Assembly (NCBI GenBank): GCA_002794035.1
Contig: PCXQ01000001.1
Location: 3,256-67,255 of the forward strand
From: Candidatus Yanofskybacteria bacterium CG10_big_fil_rev_8_21_14_0_10_36_16
Lineage (GTDB): Bacteria > Patescibacteriota > Minisyncoccia > 2-02-FULL-40-12 > IGHO2-01-FULL-4-A
Length of the DNA: 64,000 nucleotides
Reading direction: 5' to 3'
In this document: piece by piece, positions 29,774 through 47,866 of the stretch
How the letters are laid out: each line of letters starts with the position of its first letter
How positions within the stretch are numbered: the first letter of the stretch is position 1
Notes under the pieces: generated by a model
What the model was told of the DNA's origin: nothing
The model's input: only the letters and a program-made list of their open reading frames with translations
Databases searched by the model: none
Translations under genes and position numbers: made by a program

Positions 29774-31255
29774 ATGGATAAAAAAATAATAGATTTAAGC
29801 AAAATTAGAAATATTTACATGATAGGTATTAAGGGTACTGGAATGGCGCCTTTGGCGGTTAATCTTAAAAATATGGGCAAAATAATTACTGGCTCAGATA
29901 GCAGTCAGGTATTTTTTACAGATGAATTGCTTAAAAAACAAAAGATAAACATACTTTCCCCTTTTAAGGCCGGCAATATTCCTAGTGATGTAGATTTGGT
30001 AATTACCTCTACCGCATATGATAGCAAAAACCCGGAAATAAAAGAAGCTGAAACAAGAGGCCTTTCTGTTTTGGGATATCCCGAAGTTATTGGACTTCTA
30101 AGTAATTCAATGAAATCTGTGGCAGTGTGCGGAAGTCACGGAAAAACCACAACAACTGCTGTCCTTTCATATATATTATCAAGGTCAAACATCGGTGTTC
30201 TGCCAAATGTCGGTTCAATAGTTCCCCAACTTATCAATTACAAACCGGATTTCCCTTCAGGGCTTATTAATTTGGAAAAGTCCGAGGCAAAATCAAGCAT
30301 TGATACGAGGCGTACAGATGGTACGTCGAGTGTTAATGCGAAGATTTTAACGAAGGAATTCGTCAAACCCGAAGGGATTGGCTCAAAAGATCTTGCTTTA
30401 GCAGGTCATAATTTGAGCCAAGTTAATATGCCGTGGTTTGTGTTTGAGGCTGATGAATATCAAAACAAACTAAGGCATTATAGTGCCGACATTGTAATAC
30501 TCACTAATATTGATTATGACCACCCTGATTTTTTTAAGACGCTAAATGAGTATAAAAAGGTTTTTGTTGATTTTGTAAAAAGAATTCCCAAGGACGGACT
30601 TTTGATATATTGTTCGGATGATAAAGAGGCATCAAAGATTTCCATATACGCAAAATGTCCCAAAATTGCTTATAATTTAGAATTATTAGATTTAAGTAAG
30701 TGGGAAATAAAACTTGCGGGCCAGCATAATATTCTTAATACAATGGCAGCTATTTTGGCTGCCAAACATCTCGGTGTAGATGAGGATACAATTAAAAAAG
30801 CTGTGGCAAATTTTCAGGGTGTTAAACGCCGTCTTGAGTTTATAAAAAATACCCGCATAAACGGGCAGGACTGTGTTTTAATAGATGATTATGGCCACCA
30901 CCCTACTGAGATCAAGGCTTCAATAAAAGCCATTAAAGAAAAATATCCCAACAAAGTTTTGTGGACTGTTTTTCAACCGCATACTTTTAGCAGGACAAGC
31001 GCATTGTTTGATGATTTTGCAAAATCATTTAAAGAATCTGATAAGACAGTTGTTTTGGATATTTATACTTCTGCAAGAGAAAAAAGTGGTTCTATACATT
31101 CTCGAGACTTGGTTAAACAAATGAATAGTTCAAATGTTTTTTATAAAAAAGACATTCAGCAAACAGCTAAATTTTTAAAACAAAAAATAAATTCTCCCAG
31201 TGTCATAATGACAATAGGAGCAAGCAATGTCTGGGAATTGCATGAGTTGGTTTAG
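29774..31255 (+). CDS. murC: UDP-N-acetylmuramate--L-alanine ligase
   Basis: 493 aa. GIKGTGMAPLA, GSHGKTTTT P-loop, EADEY, DDYGHHP. Carries an internal insertion of about 65 aa. Confidence 0.9.
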   Translation: MDKKIIDLSKIRNIYMIGIKGTGMAPLAVNLKNMGKIITGSDSSQVFFTDELLKKQKINILSPFKAGNIPSDVDLVITSTAYDSKNPEIKEAETRGLSVLGYPEVIGLLSNSMKSVAVCGSHGKTTTTAVLSYILSRSNIGVLPNVGSIVPQLINYKPDFPSGLINLEKSEAKSSIDTRRTDGTSSVNAKILTKEFVKPEGIGSKDLALAGHNLSQVNMPWFVFEADEYQNKLRHYSADIVILTNIDYDHPDFFKTLNEYKKVFVDFVKRIPKDGLLIYCSDDKEASKISIYAKCPKIAYNLELLDLSKWEIKLAGQHNILNTMAAILAAKHLGVDEDTIKKAVANFQGVKRRLEFIKNTRINGQDCVLIDDYGHHPTEIKASIKAIKEKYPNKVLWTVFQPHTFSRTSALFDDFAKSFKESDKTVVLDIYTSAREKSGSIHSRDLVKQMNSSNVFYKKDIQQTAKFLKQKINSPSVIMTIGASNVWELHELV

Positions 31256-31547
31256 TTAAAAATTAATAAGACTTTGTTTGTATTCTCATAGATTTCTGCT
31301 ACTATATTTCCATGCTTAGTATAGGTATGGTATGAACGCAATAGAACACAAGGAGGCCAAGTTTATTCCCTTCTCTTTTGTTATAAACCTGCCAAAACCG
31401 CGTTATGAGCGTATTATTGTAAACAGAGACCGGCAAGGTAGAATATTGAGATCAATGGCTCCCAAATAAAAGTTTGTAGCTCAAGAATTAAACTAACTGG
31501 GCTAAATTGAAAAATATGGTTCAGAAAATTTAATTCTTGTTTATATT

Positions 31548-31745
31548 ATGGAGACCTGTAACAGGTGTGACAAAGAATACCCCAAAGATTCAGAAAAGTG
31601 GCATCAAAGCACCGGTGGCATACAAACCGGTGGTGGCGATACGGATGAAAAAGGAGACTACACAGTGAAACCGGCAAAAATGTGCCACGAATGTTTTGAG
31701 AAACTACCAGAAGACCAAAAACATAGCTGGCCAGAAATAAACTAA
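31548..31745 (+). CDS. Small zinc-ribbon protein
   Basis: 65 aa. CNRC...CHEC pairs. Confidence 0.4.
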   Translation: METCNRCDKEYPKDSEKWHQSTGGIQTGGGDTDEKGDYTVKPAKMCHECFEKLPEDQKHSWPEIN

Positions 31746-31809
31746 CATGATTTAGGCAATATAAAATACTCCGGCAAGAGTATTTTATATTTTTATTATT
31801 TGAACTAGC

Positions 31810-32115
31810 TTACGCTATTCTGATTTCAAACTTCCTTCTGGTTGGAGCTAATGCCGCCCATCTCATGAAGGCAGTTTTTTGGAGCAAGGCATGGCTAGAA
31901 TTTAATGAATCAGATGTTTCTATCTCTACTACATATTCATAACCATTATGGGTTGCATAAACATCCGGTAGATGGCCATTAATTAGCGGCGGTTTGACAT
32001 TGCCCGGTAAATCTGACCAGACATTACTCCATCCGGCCGCAGTTATTTGTCTTGCCCAAGAAGCTACACCAGCATCGTGTTTTTGCTGATTAGCTTTCAA
32101 TCTTATATATGGCAA
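31810..32115 (-). CDS. Hypothetical protein, possible restriction-endonuclease-like fold
   Basis: 101 aa. LPDVYA...YVVEIET resembles a degenerate PD-(D/E)xK core. Confidence 0.35.
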   Translation of the reverse strand: MPYIRLKANQQKHDAGVASWARQITAAGWSNVWSDLPGNVKPPLINGHLPDVYATHNGYEYVVEIETSDSLNSSHALLQKTAFMRWAALAPTRRKFEIRIA

Positions 32116-32252
32116 TTTAAATTAAAAAGGGGTCTCTTGACTATAAATTTAATGGATGATAAGTTTCTGGGAACTGTTTATAACTTATTTTCATAATAAC
32201 TTATAAGTAGTTATAATTATTATTACTTACGTAAAAAGCTAAAAACTTTTGT

Positions 32253-32286
32253 AAAACATGCCTTTTGCCGAAGGCGTGTTTTATTT
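32253..32286 (-). terminator. Strong stem-loop terminator closing the defence operon and its tail
   Basis: aaaacatgcctt-ttgccg-aaggcgtgtttt, a 12-bp stem with A/T runs on both sides. Confidence 0.7.
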
Positions 32287-32671
32287 TCACATGGCTTCCA
32301 GACATTCTACTTATCGTCTTGAGCCCCCTCCCTTTCTTGGCCCTAATTTTAACAATTACTGCTTTGCAATTCTGCTTGCGATTTGGCCATTTTCACAAAC
32401 TGAAAAACAAAAAATCCTTTGGCCGAGACTTAAACGAGAACTGCAATAAGTTTCCTTATTGGTGTTCCCATCCAGATGGACATCTAGCTGGAACAACTAG
32501 TGCTCCCGCTAAAGTCCCTGCCAAAGGATTTCAAGGCTTTATTGTCTCGGCCGCTCTTTTAATGTCCGGCTGTCCAAACCGAACGAGCATTTTACTAATT
32601 ATTAAGTCTTAAACTAATTTCATTATAGGTTACCGTAAGATAGATTCAAGTAGCCCTTTTGTGGATAACGC

Positions 32672-33718
32672 TTATTTCTTTAACATTTTTTCAGCAAGCG
32701 CTTTTAGGGCTTCTTCGCCTTCTACGCCGCGGAGGCGGCCGGCAAGAAAGCCGAGTTTGTAATTTATATCATCGGCTATTAAACGCCAATTTGTGTCAGC
32801 TAAGGTTTTTTTGAGTAACCTGCGAAGATCATATACACTACTCCGATCTTGCCGACCGGGTTTATTATCCTGCAATGAAAAACCCACGGTTAAATCCCGC
32901 CCTGCTTCCGGCTTATCAAAATCAAGTTTAGAATACCCAGCTTTTTTAATAGCGGGGTTGAGGTGATTCTGTAGTTCTACAATGGTAAGTTTTTTAATTT
33001 TAGCAACAGCATCATAAATCTCCTTGTTCTCCTCGTGGTCTTTCATCCATTCCGCTATTTCTTTAAGGTTGGCAGTCCATGAAATGTAATCCGTACCCTC
33101 TTTGTCAGATATACAATATTTTCTTCTATTTGCCTCAAAGTTTGGATCAACCTCTTCTCTCTTGTCTAAATCCCAGGTATCAGTTTCTTTCTGGCCACAC
33201 CCCGGACAATTATAAGCTGTCGTTATGATATTACCCTTCCGGTTATGGACGGATGTTCTATTCGCATGGCACTTAGGACAAGGGTTTTTATATTCCCACT
33301 CTTGACCGTTTTCCCAGTAAGCACGTCGGCTATTACAGTTACTGCAGTCAAAGAAAAAGAGAACCCTGTCGTTTTTATCATTAATATCGGTATGTAAGTC
33401 TTTAGATTCTACTTGCATTAAATGGCTACAACTAAGGCAGCGGATTCCTTTCGGCTCAATGGCGTTATTAATCCTATCGTCTTTGTCCTGATCGCGTTCC
33501 ATCCATTTATGTATGGTTTCTGATTTATTTCTATATCGCTCTCCTTTTTTGAAATATAGGCCAATTTCTGTAAAAGCACCGGTTATTGAGCCGGCTTTTT
33601 TATACTTATCTCTTGAAGAGATATGATTCACAGAGTTAACCCATTCTTCGCATTCTTTAATGGTTAGGCGGTCATAAAGTTCGTGATAATAACTTTCGTC
33701 TTTTAGATACTTATACAT
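32672..33718 (-). CDS. Hypothetical protein with four CxxC pairs (two zinc ribbons)
   Basis: 348 aa. CLSC, CSNC, CPKC, CPGC in the central region. 3 nt downstream of the NERD gene. Confidence 0.6.
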   Translation of the reverse strand: MYKYLKDESYYHELYDRLTIKECEEWVNSVNHISSRDKYKKAGSITGAFTEIGLYFKKGERYRNKSETIHKWMERDQDKDDRINNAIEPKGIRCLSCSHLMQVESKDLHTDINDKNDRVLFFFDCSNCNSRRAYWENGQEWEYKNPCPKCHANRTSVHNRKGNIITTAYNCPGCGQKETDTWDLDKREEVDPNFEANRRKYCISDKEGTDYISWTANLKEIAEWMKDHEENKEIYDAVAKIKKLTIVELQNHLNPAIKKAGYSKLDFDKPEAGRDLTVGFSLQDNKPGRQDRSSVYDLRRLLKKTLADTNWRLIADDINYKLGFLAGRLRGVEGEEALKALAEKMLKK

Positions 33719-33721
33719 TTA

Positions 33722-34366
33722 TTAAGAATCGTTTAATCTTTTGAGGCCCTTGGCGCTTTCAATATGTGACCTCCGGCTCTTTTTGTCCTTTATATCGGCG
33801 TTTTTGATAATGCTACAAATCTCGTCCCTTTCACTGTCAGACAATACCAAATCAGTATATTGTCTGATTTTTTCTACAGTATCCCTGCCATTACCGACTG
33901 TATCCGTACCAGTAATTTTAAGCTTATCCGCAGACGGGAAAATTATAAATGAATAAATGGGAGTATTTTGAAATCGCGGCTTTATTAGTGCCTCTATTGC
34001 TTTGGTGTGGGCGTAATTTTGCCTTAATGGATTATAGAATCTGCTCTTTCGTCTATAAATAACTTGGGTCCAGTATTGATCGCTGGCTTTACCGAAAATC
34101 CATCCAGAATAATCTTTCGTTTCAATGCAAAAAATTCCAAATCTTGAAACTATGATGTGATCAATTTGAGTTGTGCTTGTATTGCCGGTTGAAGGCAACA
34201 AAACGTCGCTTAGATTTATATACTGTTTAGGATCCAGCCCTGTCAGTTTTTTGTTTACAAATCTTTCGCCTAGCCAACCTTTCCATTGCGGAAACTTATA
34301 TTTAACCCACTGAACAATGAGATAAAGAAATCCAAACCAAATTAGTAAATATATAATGTTTTTCAA
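33722..34366 (-). CDS. Membrane-anchored NERD (nuclease-related domain) protein
   Basis: 214 aa. N-terminal TM helix, then GERFVNKKL...QIDHIIVSRFGIFCIETKDYSGWIFG...WTQ pattern typical of NERD. Confidence 0.8.
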   Translation of the reverse strand: MKNIIYLLIWFGFLYLIVQWVKYKFPQWKGWLGERFVNKKLTGLDPKQYINLSDVLLPSTGNTSTTQIDHIIVSRFGIFCIETKDYSGWIFGKASDQYWTQVIYRRKSRFYNPLRQNYAHTKAIEALIKPRFQNTPIYSFIIFPSADKLKITGTDTVGNGRDTVEKIRQYTDLVLSDSERDEICSIIKNADIKDKKSRRSHIESAKGLKRLNDS

Positions 34367-34389
34367 TTTATAGTTATTGATGTATTTAG

Positions 34390-35724
34390 TTAGAAGGCAT
34401 GTCGCTCATTTTTTGTGATTTTTTGTAAAAACATTTTTTGTTGTTTTTTCTTTTGTAACCAACCCAACTTACACAAATCAGTTACTACTGACTGGGATAT
34501 TTTATATAGTTGTTTATCTAAATCAATCACCGTATTATCAACTTGTAATGCCAAATCATTCAAGCCCATTAATTTGATACCATTTAGTGTTCTAACGCGG
34601 GATAGAGCCACATAACCCATCCCGTAAGTAAATGACTTGCTAAGGTCAATTTCTGCAGCGTCTAAGCTCATCCCTTGGCTCTTGTGGACCGTAATAGCCC
34701 AAGCAAGCCGCAGGGGTACTTGGCTTATCTCCGCTTTTATAAGGTCATTTTCTTCAACGGTCCAACTTGTTGGCCGAGCTGCCACTTCTTTGCCTTTAAT
34801 TGTTTTGATAATAGGATAACTATCACCATCAAAATCAATTACTTTGCCCAATGTTCCATTAACATATCCTTTATCAAAATTGTTCTTTACAAACATTACT
34901 ACGGCATCCTTTTTTAAGGTAAGCTCTTCCGGAGCCAAGCAGCCTTTTTTCAATGATTCTACAAGATATTTTTCACCCCTGCATTGCATTTTATAAGTTT
35001 TTGGTTCGCTTTCAATTTTATTAAGTTCAAAGTTATTAATTGCATCCACATCAACATTATGAGTATAAAGTTTGGTAGGAGTTATATTAGTAACGGCCGG
35101 TTTGTTAAACCGGCTTGTTAAAAGACCAAGTGATGTGTCAGATGTTTTGCCAGCTCTTATATCATTTAACACATTAAGAAAATTAAGATCTTGTTGCCGG
35201 TATTGTTCTGTCAGATAGCAAATCTTTATATTCATGTTCTCCCAAGCTTTAGATGTGTGTATAAAACTATCATCTTCACCATTTTTTGATACTGGCGGTA
35301 ATTGAAAAAAGTCTCCGGATAAAATTACCTGCAAACCGCCAAATGGCAAATCATTTTTCTTAAACGCTTTGCAAACCTTATCTACCATGTCTAATCGGAA
35401 TGAGTGAAGCATTGAAACCTCGTCTATTATTAAAACTTTTGTTTTTAGGAATCTTGCTCGGAAGTTAATATTTTTAAGTAACTTTGATAAATGATCATCG
35501 GTAATCTCGTTTTGTATTCCTAATCCCGCCCAAGAGTGTATTGTCCGGCCATTCATATGAGTTGCGGCAATGCCGGTTGAGGCGGTTATACCAACGCCAA
35601 TATTTTTCCCTTTCAGAAAGTTGATATACTTGTTTAATAAAAAAGTTTTCCCGCTTCCAGCGGGACCAGTTAGATACACATTATGTCCAAGTTTTAATAT
35701 ATCTAAAGCTTCCTGTTGGGTCAT
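34390..35724 (-). CDS. SF1 helicase, PIF1/RecD-like
   Basis: 444 aa. GPAGSGKTF, TIHSWAGLG, LIIDEVSM, GDFFQLPPV, ITVHKSQGMSLD. Confidence 0.85.
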   Translation of the reverse strand: MTQQEALDILKLGHNVYLTGPAGSGKTFLLNKYINFLKGKNIGVGITASTGIAATHMNGRTIHSWAGLGIQNEITDDHLSKLLKNINFRARFLKTKVLIIDEVSMLHSFRLDMVDKVCKAFKKNDLPFGGLQVILSGDFFQLPPVSKNGEDDSFIHTSKAWENMNIKICYLTEQYRQQDLNFLNVLNDIRAGKTSDTSLGLLTSRFNKPAVTNITPTKLYTHNVDVDAINNFELNKIESEPKTYKMQCRGEKYLVESLKKGCLAPEELTLKKDAVVMFVKNNFDKGYVNGTLGKVIDFDGDSYPIIKTIKGKEVAARPTSWTVEENDLIKAEISQVPLRLAWAITVHKSQGMSLDAAEIDLSKSFTYGMGYVALSRVRTLNGIKLMGLNDLALQVDNTVIDLDKQLYKISQSVVTDLCKLGWLQKKKQQKMFLQKITKNERHAF

Positions 35725-35743
35725 AAATTAAAAACTTAAAAAC

Positions 35744-37531
35744 TTAAAAACTTTGATAATACTCCCTTATCATATTAGCCATTAATTTTTGTCTTTCTTC
35801 CAGAAATTTTTGATAATCAGTAACTTCCATATCTAACACACTTACTGGTATGGCATTTTCTTTCAAGTTGTTTTCAAGCTCATTCTTGTCTTTAATGCCA
35901 CTGTATTTGAAAACCCCATTTTCAAGATGTTCCAATATTTCAGTAAAGTATTGTTTGGGTGATTTTGCTCCGATTTTGATATTAATTTCACTTTGTGTGT
36001 AGGCAAAATTGGCTATTTGGTTGTAATCTCTCTGTTTTAGCTTGTTGCTTTCAAGATATTTTTTGGGAAATATATGGTGTATATCTCCACGATGTATAAT
36101 CATATCTCGTACTTTTATATCAGTGGAAAGAAAACCTCTTTTTCCTAATTTTACTTGTGCTGCCCAAAAAAGTTTTAAGTACGGACTGGATATACTAGAT
36201 TTAACTAAATCGCGCACCAGACCTTCTGACCAGAATGTATCTGATAATTCAGCCCTCTCTATTCCTTCAAGATATTTTTCAGCACGCTGCTCAACGATGT
36301 TTCTTATATCTGTATCAAATTGGCTTTCGGGAGACCCAGAGTATCTTCCTATTAGCAGCGACATTATGAGCCACTTGCTAACTATACGCTCTATTTCAGA
36401 ATCATTGTATTCTTGTGATCTCAATTTGAGATATAAAATATAAGCAAAGTTTAAAGCATTTTTTGAACGAATTAACCCGCTTACTTCAAACCCCGCTGCC
36501 TTAACTATCATAGAAAAGCGTTCATAATGAGTTTTGTTTACAAAATCTAATACGCCGTTTTTTAATTTATTATAAGAATCCTCAACGATGGCTTCTTCGT
36601 AAGCCCTTGTTTCAAAGTTTCTACCAGATAGTAAACTTACCAAATCCCTCAACCTTCCGCGATTAAACTCTTTAGTAAAGCCAACCCTAATAATATCGGT
36701 ATAATCTGGTTGATAAATGTCATCCTGCAAGTTTTTGGCCCAAAGTATTTTTTGATAATATTCTGTATTAGTAAAGTCATCACTGGCGGATTTAATATTT
36801 TCAATAAACTCCGGATGTCGCAGAGTATGCGCAAAGTAATCTATTGCTTTTCTTAGATTTATCCCAAAATCTCCAAATGCTGCGATTCGTGACATTGCAA
36901 AGTCGGCCTGACTTAACACAACCCCCTCGGAGTTAATCCTGATAAATATTTCAGTAACCGTTTCTATATCAAGATTTTCTTTTAACTCTATAAATCCGAG
37001 CTGCTTATCTTTGATAGAATAAAGCTTGTCAATGTTGTTTTGAATGGTTTGTAAGTCTGCTTTTGGATTTCTTTTTTTGTATTCGTCTACAAGCGCAAAA
37101 ATACCTCCCTCATTTTTCAAAAACTCCGAAATATCACCAATCCAATTAACATCTTTTTCAATCGCGGGTGTTAATGTTTCAAACTTTTCCTCAATGGGAT
37201 TGAAGGCAATCCTGATTCTCATTTTTCTATATTCCTTGTCTAAAACTTCTTCTCCGAGAATGGCTGCTCTTAGTGCCGTAATTCGCTGCTGTCCGTCTAT
37301 AACAATTTTTTTACCGGATGATAAACTGCCATCTTTTAGACGAATAGATGGGTTACGCCATACAATTATGTAGCCAACAGGAAAGCCTTTATAGATAGAA
37401 TCCATCAAATCCCTCACTTTAATTGAACTCCACACAAAGGGTCGTTGAATCTCTGGTATAGCAATTTCATTGGACTGAACCCAGCTTAAAATGTCTTTAA
37501 TAAAATATTGATTTATAATGTATTGTTGCAT
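35744..37531 (-). CDS. DUF262/DUF1524 protein (GmrSD-like Type IV restriction family)
   Basis: Start moved to MQQYIINQ, 4 nt after the res stop. EIQRPFVW and IDGQQR (ParB-like NTPase) N-terminal; HRGDIHHIFPKKYL His-Me finger C-terminal. Confidence 0.85.
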   Translation of the reverse strand: MQQYIINQYFIKDILSWVQSNEIAIPEIQRPFVWSSIKVRDLMDSIYKGFPVGYIIVWRNPSIRLKDGSLSSGKKIVIDGQQRITALRAAILGEEVLDKEYRKMRIRIAFNPIEEKFETLTPAIEKDVNWIGDISEFLKNEGGIFALVDEYKKRNPKADLQTIQNNIDKLYSIKDKQLGFIELKENLDIETVTEIFIRINSEGVVLSQADFAMSRIAAFGDFGINLRKAIDYFAHTLRHPEFIENIKSASDDFTNTEYYQKILWAKNLQDDIYQPDYTDIIRVGFTKEFNRGRLRDLVSLLSGRNFETRAYEEAIVEDSYNKLKNGVLDFVNKTHYERFSMIVKAAGFEVSGLIRSKNALNFAYILYLKLRSQEYNDSEIERIVSKWLIMSLLIGRYSGSPESQFDTDIRNIVEQRAEKYLEGIERAELSDTFWSEGLVRDLVKSSISSPYLKLFWAAQVKLGKRGFLSTDIKVRDMIIHRGDIHHIFPKKYLESNKLKQRDYNQIANFAYTQSEINIKIGAKSPKQYFTEILEHLENGVFKYSGIKDKNELENNLKENAIPVSVLDMEVTDYQKFLEERQKLMANMIREYYQSF

Positions 37532-37535
37532 AAAT

Positions 37536-40217
37536 CTATTTTTCCCAAAGTCGGGCCGCTTCATCAAAGCTTTTCGGCTTCTGTGATAGCTTATCCCAAT
37601 CTTCTTGTTTAATATAAAGCATTTTGTATTTAACGTCGTTCTGAATACTATTAACATCTTTTATCCATTGTTCCAAGCGTTTTATTTTCTCAACATCGTC
37701 TAAGTCTTCGCGGCCTTTGGTTTCTATGATGTACACTTCTTTTTCTGAAACCTTTACGAAAAAGTCCGGGTAGTAATTTGAAATATCACCACTGGCATTT
37801 CGGTAATCAATCCTAAAATTAACTGCGAAGTAGTTTTTAGCATAAGAAATTATATCTTCCACTCCATCAAGAAAACCGGCAAACTCAAGTTCAAAATGCC
37901 CATCTCCAACTATTTTATTAAATGCGCTTTTCTTCGGTACAAGATATGCTTGATCCTTCACGACAAATGGTCGGCTCTTACTAATCTTAATATAATTTTG
38001 GATCTCGGCCTCGCCCTTATCTACCACGGTCAATTCGTTTATCTTCTTCTTAAATGTTTCTGTTACTGTTTTGCTGGCTTCAAGCTCTGACAAATTACGC
38101 AAAGCATTAAGATCGTCCAACTGTATTTTTTTATCAAAAAGGTTGTTTTCAATAAACTCTTTTACTTGGCCGTATAGAATATCATAACCGCTAAATAACC
38201 GAAGCTCTTTCATAATAACATTGGTAAAATACCCTATAACACTTTGGTAATCTGGTATGAAATTACTATCTAACTCTGTCTTGTGAGTTATATCACCGCT
38301 GGTAATATCCCTGAATATAATTTCGCGCTTTTCTTCTTCTGAAAACTCCTTTAATTTAACTTTCTTGTGACCAAATGTTGAAACATCAAGGTCTGAAAGG
38401 TTTTTATATTCCCGATAAATACGCGGTGTAAGAATGGGTATTTGAATATCTAACCTCGGTATATCTTTTTTGGTGTTTTCATTATCAACCTCAACAACCA
38501 AAGGAGCTTTAGGTTCTGTGCCTTCTCCCATTTTTCTGTGCTCAAGCTCAACACCTTCACTTTTAATAGATTCCACAAAATCCATAAAAGCATCTGTGCC
38601 CACTACACTAACTAATTCCGGCACTTCTTCGTTGCGATACATTCGTCTTAACCCTCTTCCAAGTGTTTGTTCTGGCAATATGTTGCTCTTTGAAGAATAA
38701 GGCCGCAATCCAACAATGGTTGTAACATTACGGACATCCCAACCTTCTTTAAGCATTAACACGGAAACTATGGCCTTATAAGGATTATCAAAATTATCAA
38801 TCTTGTTTGCTGCTTCCCGCAGCTTTTTTAATTCCTCCTCATTTTTCCCAGTTGCGCTTTCGGATATTTCACCGTTATTTTTTGTATGAATTACTAATAC
38901 AGAGTTTTTAAACTCCGGATAAGTATTTTCAAGATATTCAGCAACTTCATCACCGTTCTTAGTATCGTCGGTCATTAAAAACAAAACTGCTTTTTTGCCC
39001 AGTTTTATATGTTCATCATAAACCTTTTTCCACTCCAAATAACCGAGATGGACATAGTCCTTGTATTTCTCACTGAACTTTGAACTTTTATGCTCTTGTA
39101 GCTTGGCTCGGCTTGCAGAATCGGGCAGGACCGGACGCTTTACTACGTTTTGGTGAATGGCTTCAACCAATGGGTAATCGCTTATTGTTTGAACAAATAT
39201 AGCTCCGTTATTATGTCTTGGGGTAGCTGTTACATCAATTTGTAAAGATAATTCTTTGCCTTTCATCTTGAGACGATTGTGTATATCTTCTATGGACTTA
39301 AACCACGCTAAACGGCCATCGTGGATATGGTGCGCTTCATCATTTAGTACAACCAGCTCATCTATATCTCTAACTATTACCCCAAGATCAACTTTTGATT
39401 CATTTGTTGCGCCAACTGGTTTTTCGCCAAGAAAATATCGGGCCGTGTTTTCATCTTCAAAACTCGCAGCACTGCTATTACTCTCATAAACCCGATGAAT
39501 GTTAGTTAGAAAAATGTTTCCAGTTTTTTTAACTACACCTATTTCGTCTTGAATATGCAAAGTTAATTGAAAATCATCCCGCCAATTTTGGCCTGCAAAA
39601 CCATTATCCGGAAGTACCGGGTCTTCAAAAAATATCTTTAAGCCGTCAAAATCAGACCTGATACGGTCTAAAACAATAATGTTGGGGGTGATAACCAAAA
39701 AGTTTCGGGCTAATTTTGAATCCTCTTCATAAAGTTTATGAAAGAAGCTCCAAGCAAGAAGTAAACTTAACACCTTTGTCTTGCCGCTTCCGGTTGCCAT
39801 TTTTATTACGAAACGTAACCAGGATTCTTCAAACATTCCTGCTGAAACTGCTCCGGAACTATCAAATCTTATAAGGTCGTATTTATCTTTTACTTTTGCT
39901 ACTTCGTGGAGATAAATGGTTGTTTCTACTGCTTCTCTCTGTCCAAAATAGTATTGAAAAAGAAAGGTCTCTCCATCTGTATTTTCTCTTGGGTGGTCTA
40001 TTTTAAACCACCATTTAAGTAACGCTTTACTTGTTTCACTTGCCCCTTCATAATCAGCATCTCGCCATTCTTTGACCTTCCTACGAAGTTGATCCACTAA
40101 AGGCGGTAAAAGCCGAGCATAGCCCTGTTCTCTTAATGTCTCGTCTGCCGGAAACCACCGGAGGTCCGGGTTTAAAATCTCGTGAGGTGATTGTGGAAAC
40201 TTAGGGTGTAGTGCCAT
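37536..40217 (-). CDS. res: Type III restriction enzyme Res subunit
   Basis: 893 aa. MATGSGKTKV, LNDEAHH (DEAH), helicase C motifs, C-terminal YYPDFFV...YIIETKG PD-ExK nuclease. Confidence 0.9.
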   Translation of the reverse strand: MALHPKFPQSPHEILNPDLRWFPADETLREQGYARLLPPLVDQLRRKVKEWRDADYEGASETSKALLKWWFKIDHPRENTDGETFLFQYYFGQREAVETTIYLHEVAKVKDKYDLIRFDSSGAVSAGMFEESWLRFVIKMATGSGKTKVLSLLLAWSFFHKLYEEDSKLARNFLVITPNIIVLDRIRSDFDGLKIFFEDPVLPDNGFAGQNWRDDFQLTLHIQDEIGVVKKTGNIFLTNIHRVYESNSSAASFEDENTARYFLGEKPVGATNESKVDLGVIVRDIDELVVLNDEAHHIHDGRLAWFKSIEDIHNRLKMKGKELSLQIDVTATPRHNNGAIFVQTISDYPLVEAIHQNVVKRPVLPDSASRAKLQEHKSSKFSEKYKDYVHLGYLEWKKVYDEHIKLGKKAVLFLMTDDTKNGDEVAEYLENTYPEFKNSVLVIHTKNNGEISESATGKNEEELKKLREAANKIDNFDNPYKAIVSVLMLKEGWDVRNVTTIVGLRPYSSKSNILPEQTLGRGLRRMYRNEEVPELVSVVGTDAFMDFVESIKSEGVELEHRKMGEGTEPKAPLVVEVDNENTKKDIPRLDIQIPILTPRIYREYKNLSDLDVSTFGHKKVKLKEFSEEEKREIIFRDITSGDITHKTELDSNFIPDYQSVIGYFTNVIMKELRLFSGYDILYGQVKEFIENNLFDKKIQLDDLNALRNLSELEASKTVTETFKKKINELTVVDKGEAEIQNYIKISKSRPFVVKDQAYLVPKKSAFNKIVGDGHFELEFAGFLDGVEDIISYAKNYFAVNFRIDYRNASGDISNYYPDFFVKVSEKEVYIIETKGREDLDDVEKIKRLEQWIKDVNSIQNDVKYKMLYIKQEDWDKLSQKPKSFDEAARLWEK

Positions 40218-40218
40218 A

Positions 40219-40614
40219 TTAGGTCAATCTGTAGATATATGCGTCTTTAATAAAAATACCGTTAATGATGTTTGATTTAAATCTAATACCTGCTTTTGAC
40301 TGTTTTGATGTTTTTATCATTGTTCTCAAAAGTTTCAGAAAGTCATTATCGTGATGAAGTATTGTTATATTTGAAAGTCCGATGTCTTTTACTGTTTTTT
40401 CTTCCCCGAATTGATTGATGAAATCATTATAATTTTGCCGCGTATTTTTAATACGGTCATATTTTTTTGATGAAATTAATAATCTCCAAGCATCTGACTC
40501 GGGAACAAGTATCCAAAGAAAAACCGTTGGATTTATTTTTTGTTTATCCATCAAATCTAATAAGGTTTTTCCACTTTCAATTTTTGGTTCTTCTACCATA
40601 ATTTTTTTATCCAA
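40219..40614 (-). CDS. 131-aa orphan protein paired with HEPN (no nucleotidyltransferase motif)
   Basis: Overlaps the HEPN gene by 22 nt and ends 1 nt before the res start. No GSx10DxD MNT signature. Confidence 0.55.
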   Translation of the reverse strand: MDKKIMVEEPKIESGKTLLDLMDKQKINPTVFLWILVPESDAWRLLISSKKYDRIKNTRQNYNDFINQFGEEKTVKDIGLSNITILHHDNDFLKLLRTMIKTSKQSKAGIRFKSNIINGIFIKDAYIYRLT

Positions 40615-41030
40615 ACTAAAATACCCTTACGCCTATCTTTTATTGAGTTGATTAAAGCTTCTGCGTCAGTTTTCTTGCATATTCCATATCTGCTTTCTTC
40701 GGTCCAATCTTTAACCGTGCTCCAATTTGACTCAAAGCCCTTATCTTTGCCTGCTCTCTTATCAAAGGCCCACTTGATACCACTTACACTCAATAAGTCG
40801 TTTAAATCGTGACTATAGAGTTTCTGATAAACACTCTTTTTTGGAGGGAAGCTCTTTTCTTTGACATTTTTGCAATAGCAAGCCTTGAGGGCAAGTTCAA
40901 CGGCATAACCTGCTAAATAGTAAGCACCACTATACTCCTTATTATTAAAAAGGGTTATCGCTTCTCTGATGCGCCTCAATGCTAACTTTTTAAAATCACC
41001 GTATTCTGGATTGTCCCAAAATAAAGCCAT
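40593..41030 (-). CDS. HEPN domain protein
   Basis: 145 aa. AYYLAGYAVELALKAC...SHDLNDLL...EESRYG pattern of HEPN (PF05168-like). Confidence 0.7.
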   Translation of the reverse strand: MALFWDNPEYGDFKKLALRRIREAITLFNNKEYSGAYYLAGYAVELALKACYCKNVKEKSFPPKKSVYQKLYSHDLNDLLSVSGIKWAFDKRAGKDKGFESNWSTVKDWTEESRYGICKKTDAEALINSIKDRRKGILVWIKKLW

Positions 41031-41033
41031 ACT

Positions 41034-43283
41034 TTATATACTAATCTCAATTATTTTCATTGTATCGTTACCGAAAATATCTACGACCTTTATGGCAATT
41101 TTACGTCTGCCTTTTGGTAATTCTTTATAAGCGGTTATAAACTCAAGGTTTCTGTCCTTTTTGGTTCTAAATGATTGCCATTCGTTTTCAAAAATGTAAT
41201 CGCCGGTCCATTGTTCTTCAATTTCTTCCTTTTCGTTTTTTATAGCCACAACTTCTTTTTTGCTTTCAAAGTTAAAGTCAACGGACCAGTAATCAATCCA
41301 ATCACTCCATTTTTCAGTCAAAACATCCCTTGTAACTACACCCTCTTTGTCTTTTGAGATTTTAATAATTTTACCATTTTCTACTACAAGCTTTTTGCTG
41401 CCGTTTTTGAGGCTTTCTTCTACCTCTTTAATTGAATCTTGATTATAAAAAACTGAAAAATCAGTTAACTCAATGGCCAATGAGTTCTTTTTTATATGAG
41501 GCTTAACTTCAATGTAAGATACGTCGTGAAAAACAACTTGGTTTTTTTCTACAGCCCGTTTGTCAAATACATCTCGTGGAATATATTTAAGGGCCAAATC
41601 AACACCTTGATTTTTGGCATCTTCTTGTATTCTCGGAAATAATCCCATTTCAAACTCAAAAGCCAATATGTCTACTTTAGTTATTTTCTTTTCAACTGCT
41701 TCTTTAATTACTTCTTCAACAAATAACCGAGTAACTGGCAAGTTAATTGGGCCAACAGATACTAATCTTGCAGATTTTTTACCGAAAAAGGTTTTGAAAT
41801 TATTAATTGGTTCTGCTTTGTATGCTGACAGGATTAAAGAAACAAAATCTTTTTCTTTCTGTGCGATTTGTTTTTGCTTTTGCTCGTCCCGAAGATTGGG
41901 GTTTATACCAACGTAATGCTGCCTTTCATATTTACCAAGATTTAATACTTCAAATGCCCGATAATCTTTCCCAGTCTTTTTAAGTTCTCGTTGCACTCCA
42001 ATCATTCTCTTGCGTGTTGTGTGAATTGAGAACTTACCCAAGTCAGAACCAATCCATTTGCGGCTTAGTTTTTCAGCTGCAGCAAGGGTGGTACCAGAAC
42101 CGACAAAGAAGTCGGCAACAAGATCGTCCTCGTTTGAAGAGGCCTTTATTATGCGCTCAAGTAAGGACTCTGGTTTTTGGGTTGGATAATTATTACGTTC
42201 TTTAGCCATTGGATTAACTGGATTTATATCTAGCCAAATATCTTCAGAAACATTTCCTTTAGTATCTTCGTAAAACCTTTTTACATATGGTAACCCACTT
42301 TCAGAAAAAACAATAAGTCCCCGTTTCATTCCTTCATCTATTCTTTCTTGAGACCATATCCAGTGTTTGCCTGCCGGTGGATACAGCAACTTTTCACCGA
42401 ATTTTTTTGCTTCACCTTGTCCCTTTTGAGTAAAATCAGCCAAAGAATATCTTTTTCCCGTTTGCTCATCGGTGTACCTGTAATGAGTTTTTAATAATTT
42501 TTCCGATTTCGGTAAAAATTGAGTATTAAAAATAGTCTTCTCTTTATCTTTTGAATAAAAGAAGACTGTATCATGTACGTTTGGATAAGTTTTTGACTGT
42601 GGCTTAGCCGATGTCAGTTTTTGCCAAATAATTTCATTTTTAAAATTATTAGTTCCAAATATCTCATCTAATACCAACCTCATGTAGCTGTTAACCCTCC
42701 AATCACAATGTACATAAATACTCCCGTTTGCGGCCAACAAATCTCGCATCAGTGAAAGTCGCTCGTAAATCATAGAGATAAAACTATCTGCTCCCTTGCC
42801 CCAAGTATCCCGATATGCTAATTCCTCTAATACTGTTGGTTGTTTCTTAAACTCTTCGCCCCCAACCTCAATATCCATAGAAAAATCTGCCCCAACATCA
42901 AAAGGCGGATCAATGTAGATAAGTTTAATGCCCCCATTAGCTTCAATTTCTTCTCGTAGGGGTCCATTTTTTAAGCTTGATAGGATTAGTTTGTTGTCAC
43001 CCCAAATAAGTTTATTAGTCCAGCCCTTGATTTGGCGGCCGCGCTGGTCAAAATCAAACAACACCTGCTGGCGCTTTACTTCCTTCTCACTTCTCGGCTC
43101 ATCAACCTGTTCAATAACCTGAAATGGCAAGATAACATTGGTGACTTCATTTGTCTTGCCGTTCCAGACAAGCTCAACCTCTCGTTTGTCCTCAAACAAA
43201 AGAAACCGGTACTTATCGGGAAGAGGTTTACCGGCTTCAATAAACTTTATAGCATCGCGTTTTTCATTGTCAGTTAGATCCAT
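41034..43283 (-). CDS. mod: Type III R-M Mod subunit (beta-class N6-adenine/N4-cytosine DNA methyltransferase)
   Basis: 749 aa. IYIDPPFDVGADF (motif IV) precedes DFFVGSGTTLAAA (motif I). C-terminal extension of about 330 aa. Confidence 0.9.
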   Translation of the reverse strand: MDLTDNEKRDAIKFIEAGKPLPDKYRFLLFEDKREVELVWNGKTNEVTNVILPFQVIEQVDEPRSEKEVKRQQVLFDFDQRGRQIKGWTNKLIWGDNKLILSSLKNGPLREEIEANGGIKLIYIDPPFDVGADFSMDIEVGGEEFKKQPTVLEELAYRDTWGKGADSFISMIYERLSLMRDLLAANGSIYVHCDWRVNSYMRLVLDEIFGTNNFKNEIIWQKLTSAKPQSKTYPNVHDTVFFYSKDKEKTIFNTQFLPKSEKLLKTHYRYTDEQTGKRYSLADFTQKGQGEAKKFGEKLLYPPAGKHWIWSQERIDEGMKRGLIVFSESGLPYVKRFYEDTKGNVSEDIWLDINPVNPMAKERNNYPTQKPESLLERIIKASSNEDDLVADFFVGSGTTLAAAEKLSRKWIGSDLGKFSIHTTRKRMIGVQRELKKTGKDYRAFEVLNLGKYERQHYVGINPNLRDEQKQKQIAQKEKDFVSLILSAYKAEPINNFKTFFGKKSARLVSVGPINLPVTRLFVEEVIKEAVEKKITKVDILAFEFEMGLFPRIQEDAKNQGVDLALKYIPRDVFDKRAVEKNQVVFHDVSYIEVKPHIKKNSLAIELTDFSVFYNQDSIKEVEESLKNGSKKLVVENGKIIKISKDKEGVVTRDVLTEKWSDWIDYWSVDFNFESKKEVVAIKNEKEEIEEQWTGDYIFENEWQSFRTKKDRNLEFITAYKELPKGRRKIAIKVVDIFGNDTMKIIEISI

Positions 43284-43371
43284 GGGCCATAGTAAGATAA
43301 CTTTTACTTAAAGGGTATCACTTTTGTGCTGTTTTTTAAAGGTCTGAAAAAGAGCGTTGAGGGCGTTGACA

Positions 43372-43785
43372 CTAAACGAGAAATTGAGCGACAAACCAGA
43401 TGCCGGCAGTAATTAAAAACCATATCAACTGATTGGCTTCCCTAAAATCTCCGGAGCGGTAGTAGCGGCCAACTTGGGTTACGGTAAATATCGCGGCAGT
43501 CATCGGGATAAAGTTAAATGGAATATCAAATCTAAAGGACACGAGATAATATACGATTATTAAAGCTACCGCTTCGGAAAAACCCGAAAAGCGTGATTTT
43601 AAAATATCGCTATGTTTATCTAACAACCCTTTGAATGGGGCATAAATGAACATAGCAATAATTGGACTAATGGCTGCGATATAAAACAATGAGAATAAGG
43701 CCCATAAGAATGGCAAAAATATAAAAGAAGAAATAATAACTATACCCCATAGCAGTAAACTAATTTTTGATTTTATTACATCCAT
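43372..43785 (-). CDS. Small four-helix membrane protein, unknown function
   Basis: Start moved to MDVIKSKISLLLWG (137 aa). 88 nt upstream of mod on the same strand. Confidence 0.55.
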   Translation of the reverse strand: MDVIKSKISLLLWGIVIISSFIFLPFLWALFSLFYIAAISPIIAMFIYAPFKGLLDKHSDILKSRFSGFSEAVALIIVYYLVSFRFDIPFNFIPMTAAIFTVTQVGRYYRSGDFREANQLIWFLITAGIWFVAQFLV

Positions 43786-43810
43786 AAAATTACAAAACCC
43801 GCCGCTAGGC

Positions 43811-43897
43811 GATGGATTTCTCCACCTGTTACCCTTTCGGGTAACAACCACTGCTGGTGCTCCTAAACGACGGGTTTAGTACCCAGCAGTGGTTTTT
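43811..43897. promoter_or_regulatory. Cluster of GC-rich hairpins (candidate structured leader or small RNA)
   Basis: gatgga-tttc-tccacc, gttaccc-tttc-gggtaac (GAAA loops on the minus strand), and a 10-bp stem ccactgctgg/ccagcagtgg enclosing ctaaac-gacgg-gtttag, then TTTTT. Confidence 0.4.
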
Positions 43898-44012
43898 ACG
43901 TCATACCTCAAATGTTGACATTTTGAGGGTTAGGCAATTTTTAGTTGTTAGACCAATATTATCACAAAACCTTGAAAATCTCCATAATTTTCGTTTTACT
44001 TAAATTAATACT

Positions 44013-44768
44013 ATGGCCTTAATTAACGACAAACAATTTAAACAATTTTTAGAACTCCTAATAAATAAGGTTGAATTAAGAAACGATATTCATTTGGGAA
44101 TACAATACCGTGAATTAATCCAAATATTTTTAGATGATAACGCTATCAAAGATTATTTGCGCTATTCTGAAAATAAGAAGTTGTTAAAATTAATAGGCAT
44201 ATCTAAATATAAAGAAAAGGAAGATCCTTACCCTGATGATTATTATATAAACGAGATAACGCCTAACAATGATTTTATAGGCCCGAAAAGATATTATGCC
44301 GTAAAGAGGTATATACGGTATAATTTCTACCCAAAGGACAACTTTATACTTGATGTGTCTGATAAAAAAATTAAAGGTTTTTATAAGCAGTATCAAAAAG
44401 AAGGTCCGGGGCAAGACCCAAAACGGCTAATTTCCAAAAATAAAAGTGCTTATTTTTATAAATCAAAACAAATAGTTTTTGACAGTGAAGAAACTGACTA
44501 CTTCAGAGTATTTGATGTCCTTTACGAAAATAGTGGGCAAGACAACTTTTTGTCATATGAAAATATAGATAAAGAAATGGTCCGAAGGGGCTCGCCAAAA
44601 CTTATAGATGATCAACAAAAAATTAAACGTATTCATAATGCAGTTAAGAACTTATTTTTATATTCTCGTTGCGGAAGTGAAAAGCTAAAAAATACTACGC
44701 CCAATAAAACTGAACTAATAAAAAAGGTTAGAGGGAGAGGGTGTGTTTTCAATAACCCTCTAATTTAA
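44013..44768 (+). CDS. Hypothetical protein, possible C-terminal winged-helix
   Basis: 251 aa. C-terminal KKVRGRGCVFNNP resembles OmpR/PhoB-type wing endings. Confidence 0.45.
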   Translation: MALINDKQFKQFLELLINKVELRNDIHLGIQYRELIQIFLDDNAIKDYLRYSENKKLLKLIGISKYKEKEDPYPDDYYINEITPNNDFIGPKRYYAVKRYIRYNFYPKDNFILDVSDKKIKGFYKQYQKEGPGQDPKRLISKNKSAYFYKSKQIVFDSEETDYFRVFDVLYENSGQDNFLSYENIDKEMVRRGSPKLIDDQQKIKRIHNAVKNLFLYSRCGSEKLKNTTPNKTELIKKVRGRGCVFNNPLI

Positions 44769-44899
44769 TAAGTTATCTCTCAATTTCTTGTGGACAGCCA
44801 AATATCGGCTGTCTTTTTTTCTTTTTTTACTTGGTTTTAGCGGCCAAAGAGATAAACGGAGAAATTAAAAGATATTAAATATTGATTCAAAATTAAATT

Positions 44900-45526
44900 A
44901 TGCAACCAATAATTAAAACTTTTACTGAACCGGATTGGGATTATCTGTTTTGGACTTGGGATTTAGAAAAACAATGGCAGGAGTCATTGCCAAGGCCAAC
45001 TGAACGAGAGTTGTTAGGTATTTTCCCGGAAGCAAAAAAGATATTGCCGGCATTATTAAGGGACTGGCAACAAAGAAAAAGTGAATTAACCAAAGAACTG
45101 GCTCGGAAATTAAAAATAGTAAAACTTGGCGCGGATAGCGACAGCGAAAGATTTTTCTGGACTGAATGGCTGAAAACAAAATATTTAGGAGAAATTACTG
45201 AAATCGTTAATGACATTAAAAAGTTCAAGAGAATGATGGCTATATCAAACAACCGGGGCCGAGCCTTACGAAGCGAAGAGTCATTGCAAAAGGCTTTAGC
45301 TGTGCCAATAGCATCGGCTATCCGAATTAAACTAAGAAAATTGGGTAATAAACTTGTTGGGCTGTGTCCCCTACATAACGAGAGTAACCCATCATTTTAT
45401 ATCTATACCGATACTAATTCCTTTTATTGCTACGGATGTGGCAAGGGTGGAAATGTAATCAACTTGGTTAGATTTCTACACGATTACACATTCCCAGAAG
45501 CAATAAAGTATTTAACTAATTTATAA
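44900..45526 (+). CDS. CHC2 zinc-finger protein (DnaG-primase-type finger)
   Basis: 208 aa. CPLHNESNPSFYIYTDTNSFYCYGCGKGGNVINLVRFL. Confidence 0.65.
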   Translation: MQPIIKTFTEPDWDYLFWTWDLEKQWQESLPRPTERELLGIFPEAKKILPALLRDWQQRKSELTKELARKLKIVKLGADSDSERFFWTEWLKTKYLGEITEIVNDIKKFKRMMAISNNRGRALRSEESLQKALAVPIASAIRIKLRKLGNKLVGLCPLHNESNPSFYIYTDTNSFYCYGCGKGGNVINLVRFLHDYTFPEAIKYLTNL

Positions 45527-45609
45527 CTTTTGTTTCTTGTTCGGGCTCTTGGCAAAGGCCATAGTAAGCTCCGGCCAGGAGCTCAAACAAGAAACGCGGA
45601 GCTTACTTT

Positions 45610-47154: not shown

Positions 47155-47186
47155 TAAAACAAGGGGTACTACCCATAACTTAAGTT

Positions 47187-47558
47187 ATGCAGTGTAAATA
47201 CATAAAAAATAATAAAAAACAGTGCGGAGCAAACGCAATGCTCAAAAACAGTTATTGCTTTTATCATAATCCGGATGTCAAAAAAGCAGATAAAAAAGAG
47301 GCTCAATCAAGAGGTGGTAAGGGCAATAAAAGTAGAGTTAGTGAAACTCTTCCGCCAATAACTTTCAAGAAGTCCCGAAACGTCGTCGGATTGCTTGAGG
47401 AAACTATTAATTTGGTTAGGGCAGGAAAAATGGAAATACGAGTTGCTAACTGCATAGGATACTTGTCGGGCCACATCATCAAGGCAATTGAGGTTTCAGA
47501 GCTTACGCAACGCCTACAGGAAGTTGAGAAAAAAATAGAAATAAAATGGCAGGAATAA
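47187..47558 (+). CDS. Hypothetical protein (mobile-element small ORF)
   Basis: 123 aa, basic N-terminus with Cys pairs. Overlaps the next ORF by 13 nt. Confidence 0.5.
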   Translation: MQCKYIKNNKKQCGANAMLKNSYCFYHNPDVKKADKKEAQSRGGKGNKSRVSETLPPITFKKSRNVVGLLEETINLVRAGKMEIRVANCIGYLSGHIIKAIEVSELTQRLQEVEKKIEIKWQE

Positions 47559-47836
47559 CTTTATCTACAATAAAAAGATTAGAGAAAAAAGCCGAAGAAT
47601 TAAGGGCGGCAAATCCAATAGTGGACCGGGTCATAACTGTTCCTTGGCCTTTAGAGATTTATAGCGAAGAGGGAGAAAGATTTATCCAAGAGGAAATTGA
47701 GCGGCGAAATCAAATTAGGAAAGAATCCGGTATTTATTCCGAAGGTCCTTTCTACGTGATTATGCCGGGTAGAATGCCTCAATGGGTGGCCGAAGAAGAA
47801 TGGAGGAAACAAGAAGAGGCAGAGAAACTTAAATAA
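47546..47836 (+). CDS. Hypothetical protein (mobile-element small ORF)
   Basis: 96 aa, charged. Translationally coupled to the upstream ORF. Confidence 0.5.
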   Translation: MAGITLSTIKRLEKKAEELRAANPIVDRVITVPWPLEIYSEEGERFIQEEIERRNQIRKESGIYSEGPFYVIMPGRMPQWVAEEEWRKQEEAEKLK

Positions 47837-47866
47837 TTTCCAATTTTAAGTTATAATGAGTAAACT

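Follow-up and report, generated by a model that had tools for sequence, protein, structure and literature searches.

A block of nine genes on the minus strand (positions 32672-43785) was analysed in a 64-kb stretch, here called the window, of contig PCXQ01000001.1 from Candidatus Yanofskybacteria bacterium CG10_big_fil_rev_8_21_14_0_10_36_16. The block had been proposed, from the DNA alone, to be one functionally coupled defence system in which a type III restriction-modification (R-M) operon is split by a HEPN gene pair and extended by further genes (the original prediction). Our results indicate that it is very probably, at a rough probability of 0.8, the cargo array of an ~18-kb integrative mobile element, and that it is a string of separately mobile modules and not one system. 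No tested component of the block is tied to the others: each is found elsewhere without them. Independent assortment of this kind is the outcome that the original prediction had itself named as speaking against a coupled nine-gene system, and that claim therefore does not stand. Conservation of the gene order was not seen either: any other locus has at most two of the nine genes in common with the block, and the full set was seen solely in the same organism, recovered from three samples.

In the direction of transcription the genes encode a small membrane protein (g1), the methyltransferase Mod, a HEPN protein, a small protein termed g4, the helicase-nuclease Res, a GmrSD-like protein, a Pif1-family helicase, a NERD protein and a protein with four CxxC pairs (g9). 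Homologues of g9 were found in 80 further loci, and tblastn searches of these loci with the window proteins (E <= 1e-5) revealed no HEPN, g4, GmrSD or NERD homologue; two genes upstream of g9 carry a distant Pfam NERD domain that lies below tblastn detection. One of the 80 loci (L061) has an adjacent Pif1 gene, and one has a distant Mod and Res 5 kb away, with mod and res adjacent to each other there.

Packing of the block

The nine open reading frames (ORFs) and their junctions (+88, +3, -22, +1, +4, +19, +23 and +3 nt) were reproduced from the ORF coordinates, the HEPN/g4 junction being -22 nt with the TTG start of g4 and -7 nt with its ATG start. Profile searches against Pfam, PADLOC and NCBIfam were performed on all nine block proteins. 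They bore out the description of the genes given in the original prediction: all of its domain calls were upheld by Pfam or PADLOC, the motifs that it quoted can be read in the translations, and every recognisable domain occurs in defence contexts; the genes are of defence type.

The close spacing had been taken as an argument for functional coupling. Seven of the eight junctions measure 23 nt or less, and co-directional genes elsewhere in the window are separated by a median of 102 nt, with 19% of the gaps at or below 25 nt (ATG-only gene calls). Gaps tighter than this background make co-transcription of the block plausible. In the co-directional arrays upstream of the g9 homologues in the 80 loci the median gap was 6 nt and 78% of the gaps were at or below 25 nt; for all co-directional pairs in these loci the median was 20 nt. 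Packing of the block is thus tighter than in the rest of the window, yet normal for such loci whatever their content. Since equally tight arrays of other content occur in the 80 loci, spacing cannot separate a functional system from packed cargo, and the argument for coupling is lost. Scans of 31200-45000 for promoters and terminators gave results at chance level and were uninformative on operon structure.

Loci of g9 homologues

The last gene of the array, g9 (32672-33718, minus strand), encodes a protein of 348 amino acids (aa) that matched no Pfam, PADLOC or NCBIfam family. Its four CxxC pairs were invariant in 27 homologues. Searches yielded 149 full-length homologues with 40-59% identity, and 282 relatives in GTDB genomes, nearly all of them in Patescibacteria bins. 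The 80 loci in which the gene context was analysed (L004-L083) include 10-kb flanks, so that g9 stands at ~10001-11070 in most of them; the ORFs of all 80 were clustered, and counts of backbone genes refer to the 78 loci in which the g9-homologue gene was called.

Genes recurring near g9 were those for an N6_N4 methylase (42 loci), a small helix-turn-helix (HTH) protein (31), a Terminase_6C protein (22), a large serine recombinase (22) and an S24 LexA-like protein (13), along with type I R-M genes. A typical locus has the recombinase, terminase, HTH protein and methylase, in this order, on one strand, followed by the variable genes and g9 on the other. In at least eight loci the methylase and g9 genes directly adjoin each other in divergent orientation, and across the 80 loci arrays of 0-8 co-directional genes precede g9. 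The gene directly upstream was co-directional with g9 in 61 of 76 loci, and the gap was 42 nt or less in 47 of these 61. Genes in this position encode, among others, Shedu SduA, Hachiman HamB, a CBASS cyclase, Gabija GajB, type IIG and type IV restriction endonucleases, Mrr, Eco57I, a KAP NTPase, Macro, Schlafen and caspase domains, DUF4238, QatA and, in two loci, NERD. Recombinases or plain housekeeping genes lie downstream of g9. No capsid genes were present within 10 kb in these loci, and among the 2.9 million contigs of IMG/VR g9 was found on only four, which have the same architecture and no capsid genes. Several genomes hold two or three copies of the locus, as does JBAXYM01 (L014, L021 and L022).

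Recurrent backbone neighbours, combined with variable defence genes directly upstream, argue that g9 belongs to the backbone of a family of integrative elements in Patescibacteria, that it lies at the downstream end of a variable slot for defence cargo, and that it is not a partner of NERD or Pif1. With a conserved backbone, a slot occupied by differing defence systems and an integrase, the loci have the make-up of a mobile-element defence hotspot. Hotspots of P2/P4 satellites and accessory regions of phage-inducible chromosomal islands (PICI) reportedly hold variable defence systems in a fixed slot between backbone genes. The g9 loci resemble them in that unrelated defence systems occupy a fixed slot of an integrative, phage-related element. 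Unlike these, their host lineage is Patescibacteria, and the backbone consists of a serine recombinase, Terminase_6C, an N6_N4 methylase, the four-CxxC protein and the structured RNA LOOT, which is described below.

The probable insertion between murC and ychF

The original prediction had placed the block within an ~18-kb insertion between murC (29774-31255, plus strand) and ychF (49635-50783, plus strand) in a low-GC genome. The two flanking genes were confirmed, and the placement was supported by the presence of a mobile-element arm. The arm (44013-49702, plus strand) is divergent from the block and consists of a 251-aa ORF, a DnaG-type CHC2 zinc-finger protein (44900-45526, plus strand; 208 aa, with Zn_ribbon_DnaG at 4.6e-20 as its sole domain), a 514-aa ORF, three small ORFs and, at its end, a large serine recombinase (48059-49702, plus strand). 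The recombinase, of 547 aa, contains the Resolvase, Recombinase and Zn_ribbon_recom domains and matched PHROG integrase at 2.5e-97. A serine recombinase arm that lies between the block and ychF marks the region as a probable integrative mobile element. The recombinase ORF overlaps ychF by 68 nt (49635-49702), with the codons of the YchF P-loop in another frame, and this overlap with the start region of ychF suggests that integration occurred at the very 5' end of the gene. The ORFs of 251, 514, 123, 96 and 74 aa in this arm (44013-47836, plus strand) had no match in Pfam, PHROG or NCBIfam, and no homologue in the 80 g9 loci.

Mod, Res and the HEPN cassette

Mod (41034-43283, minus strand) is a type III-like, beta-class N6-adenine DNA methyltransferase, with matches to N6_N4_Mtase in Pfam (1.9e-47) and to MTase_III in PADLOC (2e-117). 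Its motif IV precedes motif I, DPPF lying near residue 125 and FVGSG near residue 388, and its nearest solved structures are a type III Mod (6k0w) and the Mod of EcoP15I (4zcf). Beyond the methyltransferase domain the protein has a C-terminal extension of ~320 aa (residues ~430-749; window 41034-42000, minus strand) that matched nothing in Pfam and is kept in plasmid homologues, the alignment with which spans residues 3-749. Res (37536-40217, minus strand) is the superfamily 2 (SF2) helicase-nuclease subunit, with a ResIII domain (1.7e-15), GSGKT and DEAH motifs and, in its C-terminal part (residues 787-848), a TnsA-like PD-ExK domain (TnsA-like_N, 8.6e-6). Its best NCBIfam match was the BPTD_3080 family restriction endonuclease (5.9e-81), at 272.7 bits and hence below the curated (equivalog) cut-off of 800. 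A PDB sequence search with Res gave no match.

Close homologues of both proteins are encoded on plasmids of Alphaproteobacteria. On Aminobacter plasmid pANY103c, a Mod is encoded to which the window Mod is 61.6% identical from end to end; Res is 66.8% identical, over 99% of its length, to the product of the gene that abuts mod on this plasmid, and 65.8% identical to its counterpart on pSMED02 of Sinorhizobium medicae, where the value for Mod is likewise almost unchanged. On both plasmids (L176 and L177, 6887-11649) mod and res directly abut, with neither the HEPN cassette nor any other block gene beside them. The abutting homologues point to mod-res as a conserved two-gene operon. Identities of 61-67% between Patescibacteria and Alphaproteobacteria argue for horizontal transfer of the pair, and indicate that this transfer between phyla was probably fairly recent. 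In the window the two genes are co-directional, with the HEPN cassette of 0.8 kb between them.

Type III R-M enzymes require two inversely oriented unmethylated sites for ATP-dependent cleavage, and Mod hemimethylates. The window genes resemble systems of the EcoP15I type in having a beta-class Mod, mod upstream of res, and a Res that combines SF2 helicase motifs with a C-terminal PD-ExK nuclease. They differ in the two-gene cassette that parts mod from res, and in the uncharacterised ~320-aa extension of Mod.

The cassette is inserted with junctions of 3 nt (to mod) and 1 nt (to res). Its first gene (40593-41030, minus strand) encodes a HEPN protein of 145 aa that matched PF05168 with 29.1 bits against a cut-off of 22; a PDB sequence search with it gave no match. 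The protein and its homologues conserve HDL, SRY and R114. None of five HEPN homologues has a His 4-6 residues after R114, so that the Rx4-6H motif is not intact, and the missing His makes canonical RNase chemistry of this protein doubtful. The second gene, g4 (40219-40614, minus strand), encodes 131 aa from the TTG start, or 126 aa from the ATG at 40599 that is the choice of gene callers. The g4 protein matched no family in the profile searches, and just four sequence relatives of it were found. Its predicted fold weakly resembles that of minimal nucleotidyltransferases (MNT), which were the best match, and the most fitting name for the pair is a HEPN/MNT-fold-like cassette. On five other contigs (L085-L089) a HEPN homologue with 48-68% identity precedes a g4 homologue with the same overlapping junction. 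There, neither Mod nor Res is found beside the pair, which is flanked by a 181-aa ORF or a DUF3800 gene; one further g4 homologue (L084) has no HEPN neighbour. The HEPN and g4 genes appear to travel together as an autonomous cassette.

HEPN genes lie inside R-M operons in at least 16 HEPN clades, with PrrC-EcoprrI as the paradigm (Anantharaman et al. 2013, PMC3710099). Given this documentation, the interruption of a type III R-M operon by a HEPN pair adds a further example to a theme already known. The HEPN gene of the window is like those described in sitting within an R-M operon (PMC3710099). Unlike the PrrC-EcoprrI case, it is small, of the PF05168 type and accompanied by a partner gene, and is not fused to an ABC-ATPase; its incomplete Rx4-6H motif and the occurrence of the pair away from R-M genes also set it apart from the paradigm. 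The pair also resembles the HEPN-MNT type II/VII toxin-antitoxin systems (SO_3166/SO_3165; PDB 5yep, 8xeh) in that a small HEPN gene overlaps a gene for a small protein whose predicted fold is weakly MNT-like.

GmrSD-like, Pif1 and NERD genes

The GmrSD-like DUF262/DUF1524 protein (35744-37531, minus strand) is read from an internal ATG of a 637-aa ORF and is a candidate type IV (modification-dependent) nuclease. It matched GmrSD_N at 5e-33 and PADLOC HEC-05 at 8e-32, and contains DGQQR and HHIFP; the match to GmrSD_C was weak (0.005), its 17.2 bits falling below the cut-off of 23. Nucleases of the GmrSD type are type IV enzymes that cleave modified DNA, such as DNA carrying glucosyl-hmC. In common with these enzymes and with HEC-05, the window protein joins an N-terminal DUF262 to a C-terminal HNH-like DUF1524 (His-Me finger) in one polypeptide, and it departs from them in the sub-threshold GmrSD_C match. 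Full-length homologues with 52-54% identity were found in unrelated contexts on plasmids of Priestia, Meiothermus and Pseudomonas. On pMtWR-220 of Meiothermus taiwanensis (L178, 5992-7791) a 53% identical DUF262 homologue separates hsdM from hsdS within a type I R-M operon of the order hsdM-DUF262-hsdS-DUF4433-macro-AAA-DUF4276-hsdR, and the homologue in P. putida adjoins a 5'-nucleotidase gene and a VWA/PP2C/kinase set. The gene would seem to have lodged repeatedly beside or within different R-M systems, and to be a stand-alone module that is widely transferred as a single gene.

The Pif1-family superfamily 1B (SF1B) helicase (34390-35724, minus strand; PIF1, 1.7e-40) carries the motifs GSGKT, DEVSM, QLPPV and VHKSQG. 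At least 8000 candidates were obtained at E <= 1e-20, and the best 120 listed were all at least 59% identical, placing the helicase in an apparently very large Patescibacteria family. Among the matches listed, the closest relatives were 81% and 76% identical. The former adjoins HARE-HTH and HI_0787_N genes, and the latter sits between dnaK/dnaJ and grpE on five contigs (L091-L095; 10001-11365 in L091). Neither has a NERD, g9 or GmrSD gene, or any other block gene, as a neighbour. On the five contigs Pif1 stands in opposite orientation, together with a 142-aa ORF in four of them (115 aa in L094), and this arrangement looks like an insertion into the chaperone cluster. The sole other adjacency of Pif1 and g9 among the 80 g9 loci is that in L061 (61-2174), a 3.5-kb contig binned as Omnitrophota, where a 60% identical Pif1 homologue abuts the g9 homologue with no NERD gene between them. 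The possibility that Pif1 is a host housekeeping copy, with the boundary of the element lying inside the block, was considered and is not favoured, because g9, on the far side of Pif1, belongs to the element in other genomes.

The NERD protein (33722-34366, minus strand; NERD, 3.5e-33) is anchored in the membrane by its N-terminus and related to nucleases of the PD-(D/E)xK type. Its family comprises 6995 cluster representatives at E <= 0.001. Among 80 metagenome NERD loci we found no homologue of g9, GmrSD or Res, and a single strong match to Pif1, on the other strand at a distance of 1.5 kb; from these neighbourhoods NERD is apparently a stand-alone module. Single-protein scans of IMG/VR for NERD and Pif1 returned nothing, the patterns being too specific. 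Nhi (nuclease-helicase immunity) is said to unite a NERD-like nuclease and a superfamily 1 (SF1) helicase in a single fused protein. The window likewise has a NERD-like nuclease and an SF1 helicase; unlike in Nhi, they are encoded by separate genes in the order helicase-nuclease. We rejected a split Nhi-like system, since the two genes do not co-occur in the other loci sampled.

LOOT RNA and g1

A copy of the LOOT RNA (Rfam RF03000) occupies 43811-43936 (minus strand) at the head of the nine-gene array, 25 nt 5' of the ATG of g1. It scored 86.2 bits in Rfam cmscan against a gathering score of 46.4, and the match is full length (model positions 1-121). The motif comes from the screen of Weinberg et al. 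2017 (PMC5737381), the main text of which is silent on LOOT, and is classed as a small RNA (sRNA) in Rfam. We built a covariance model of our own from six copies and detected LOOT with it in 32 of the 80 g9 loci (L004, L005, L007, L014, L018, L022, L024, L026, L028, L033, L034, L038, L039, L041, L044-L047, L051, L052, L055, L060, L063, L064, L066-L068, L071, L074, L077, L081 and L083); five copies were confirmed directly by Rfam. The same model found none in 0.83 Mb of control loci, made up of NERD loci, Pif1 loci and plasmids. In an alignment of 33 copies, 94% of cells were paired and 25 of 29 pairs showed compensatory (double) changes, and pairing fell to 44% of cells or less once the partners were slid.

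LOOT lies beside the recombinase gene, directly behind g9 or at the start of the cargo. The next gene runs in the same direction in 28 of 30 cases, with a median of 63 nt between the two. This orientation and spacing suggest a cis-acting leader. Among the genes downstream of LOOT, 25 of 29 encode at least one transmembrane (TM)-like segment, against a background of 26% (Fisher p = 4e-11), and their Pfam matches include DUF4352, PG_binding_1, SNase, bPH_2, PspC-TM and Pmp3. The gene g1 (43372-43785, minus strand; its ORF reaches 43851 from a GTG) encodes 137 aa with four hydrophobic segments and gave no Pfam, PADLOC or NCBIfam match. The enrichment of TM genes downstream of LOOT assigns g1 to LOOT and not to the R-M genes, and g1 is best read as the membrane-protein partner of a LOOT leader, forming with it a recurrent module of the element and not an R-M component. 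The window copy is like the Rfam LOOT in being a full-length match with the same helices, backed by covariation. Where the Rfam entry gives no function, LOOT is tied here to one Patescibacteria mobile-element family and to a position upstream of membrane-protein genes.

A short GC-rich hairpin with a U-rich tract is located at 43799-43812 (minus strand), where it adjoins the last helix of LOOT and precedes the start codon of g1 by 13 nt. It could be a terminator or attenuator.

Discussion

The analysis favours an integrative element with a large serine recombinase at its ychF end and g9 at its murC end, whose cargo is best read as a chain of separate modules. The LOOT leader with the small membrane protein g1 forms one of these. 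The type III-like R-M pair would methylate host sites and, following ATP-dependent communication along the DNA, cut invading DNA that is unmodified. The HEPN/MNT-fold-like cassette between mod and res may act as a reserve of the toxin-antitoxin or abortive-infection type, perhaps restrained by the R-M enzyme as PrrC is. The GmrSD-type nuclease would then cut modified phage DNA that escapes the R-M enzyme. The Pif1-family helicase and the membrane-anchored NERD nuclease-like protein are two further modules, and g9 is part of the element backbone rather than of any defence system. The array may be co-transcribed from one promoter near LOOT. Immunity from such an array would most likely be layered and additive, with the R-M enzyme directed against unmodified DNA, the GmrSD-type nuclease against modified DNA, and HEPN in reserve.

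How far the genes act together is where the other explanations differ. A single novel nine-gene defence system, integrated round the type III R-M enzyme, would agree with the common direction of all nine genes, with seven of eight junctions at or below 23 nt, tighter than the window background, and with the defence contexts of all recognisable domains. We consider it highly improbable, since each component tested is found apart from the others, the composition was seen only in the window's own organism, and arrays just as tight, of entirely different content, precede g9 homologues elsewhere. Coupling might instead be confined to the middle of the block, HEPN and g4 forming with the type III R-M a two-layer unit of the PrrC-EcoprrI kind while the other genes act independently; the intact R-M complex would silence the HEPN effector, and inhibition of the R-M enzyme by a phage would free it. 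The cassette lies exactly between mod and res, at the point where the plasmid homologues abut, and a silencing logic has been proposed for the at least 16 HEPN clades embedded in R-M operons (PMC3710099). We nevertheless regard this as unlikely: the cassette occurs on five other contigs without Mod or Res, beside the 181-aa ORF or the DUF3800 gene, the RNase motif of HEPN is not intact, and the predicted resemblance of g4 to the MNT antitoxin fold means that the pair could be self-contained.

Pif1, NERD and g9 may also not be immune genes at all, and may serve the replication, maintenance or transfer of the element, for example as its own helicase, its nuclease and a zinc-ribbon protein that binds DNA. 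Pif1 belongs to a very large family in Patescibacteria, with its nearest relatives among housekeeping genes; g9 is a backbone gene that is present even where no cargo separates it from the methylase; the other arm of the element has primase-like genes; and none of the three proteins has a strong match to a PADLOC system model. Against such a role, NERD proteins are encoded directly upstream of g9 in two other loci with clearly defensive neighbours, NERD domains form part of BREX PglW and MADS MAD6, and the Pif1 homologue that directly precedes g9 in L061 fits Pif1 as occasional cargo. We hold this explanation, for the three genes together, to be doubtful.

Several observations weigh against the reading of the block as cargo of separate modules. 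Its spacing is tighter than that of the window remainder, and the 3- and 1-nt junctions of the HEPN cassette would keep expression coupled, so that some functional interplay, of HEPN with the R-M enzyme above all, is possible. The contigs that carry HEPN and g4 without Mod or Res are short (1-3 kb), and a farther R-M neighbour may lie beyond their ends; contexts of Res and GmrSD were sampled on plasmids only, none of them from Patescibacteria. As to the element itself, a search between the ends of the insertion for direct repeats or a displaced ychF fragment gave only matches of 13 nt or less, which are chance-like, and no att repeat; the lack of a direct repeat is expected for serine recombinases. 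The window element is also without the terminase and methylase genes that are common in the backbone of g9 loci, to which it is tied by g9, LOOT and the serine recombinase alone.

Taken jointly, the results on g9 and LOOT lead to a wider proposal, to which we give even chances. The two would be hallmarks of a so far undescribed, widespread family of phage-related integrative elements of Patescibacteria, with a serine recombinase, a terminase-like gene, an N6_N4 methylase and a defence slot upstream of g9, which would make these elements the candidate phyla radiation (CPR) counterpart of the P2/P4 and PICI hotspots. LOOT would be a cis-acting 5' leader and not a free-standing sRNA, controlling diverse membrane or exported proteins, possibly superinfection-exclusion factors, and in the window the whole downstream defence array.

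Little is known about defence in CPR/Patescibacteria. Had the proposed nine-gene system held up, it would have been a composite immune system not described before; the evidence contradicts this, and the set of genes is not novel as a kind. Two things are potentially new: the Patescibacteria element family marked by g9 and LOOT, cargo slot included, and the genomic context that the orphan LOOT motif is given here for the first time. These by-products are more useful than the original claim of a nine-gene system. The picture that they offer is one in which ultra-small groundwater Patescibacteria gain standard defence modules by horizontal transfer and stack them in the cargo slot of an integrative element, and in which g9 provides a conserved anchor for mining defence cargo, unknown genes included, across hundreds of Patescibacteria genomes.

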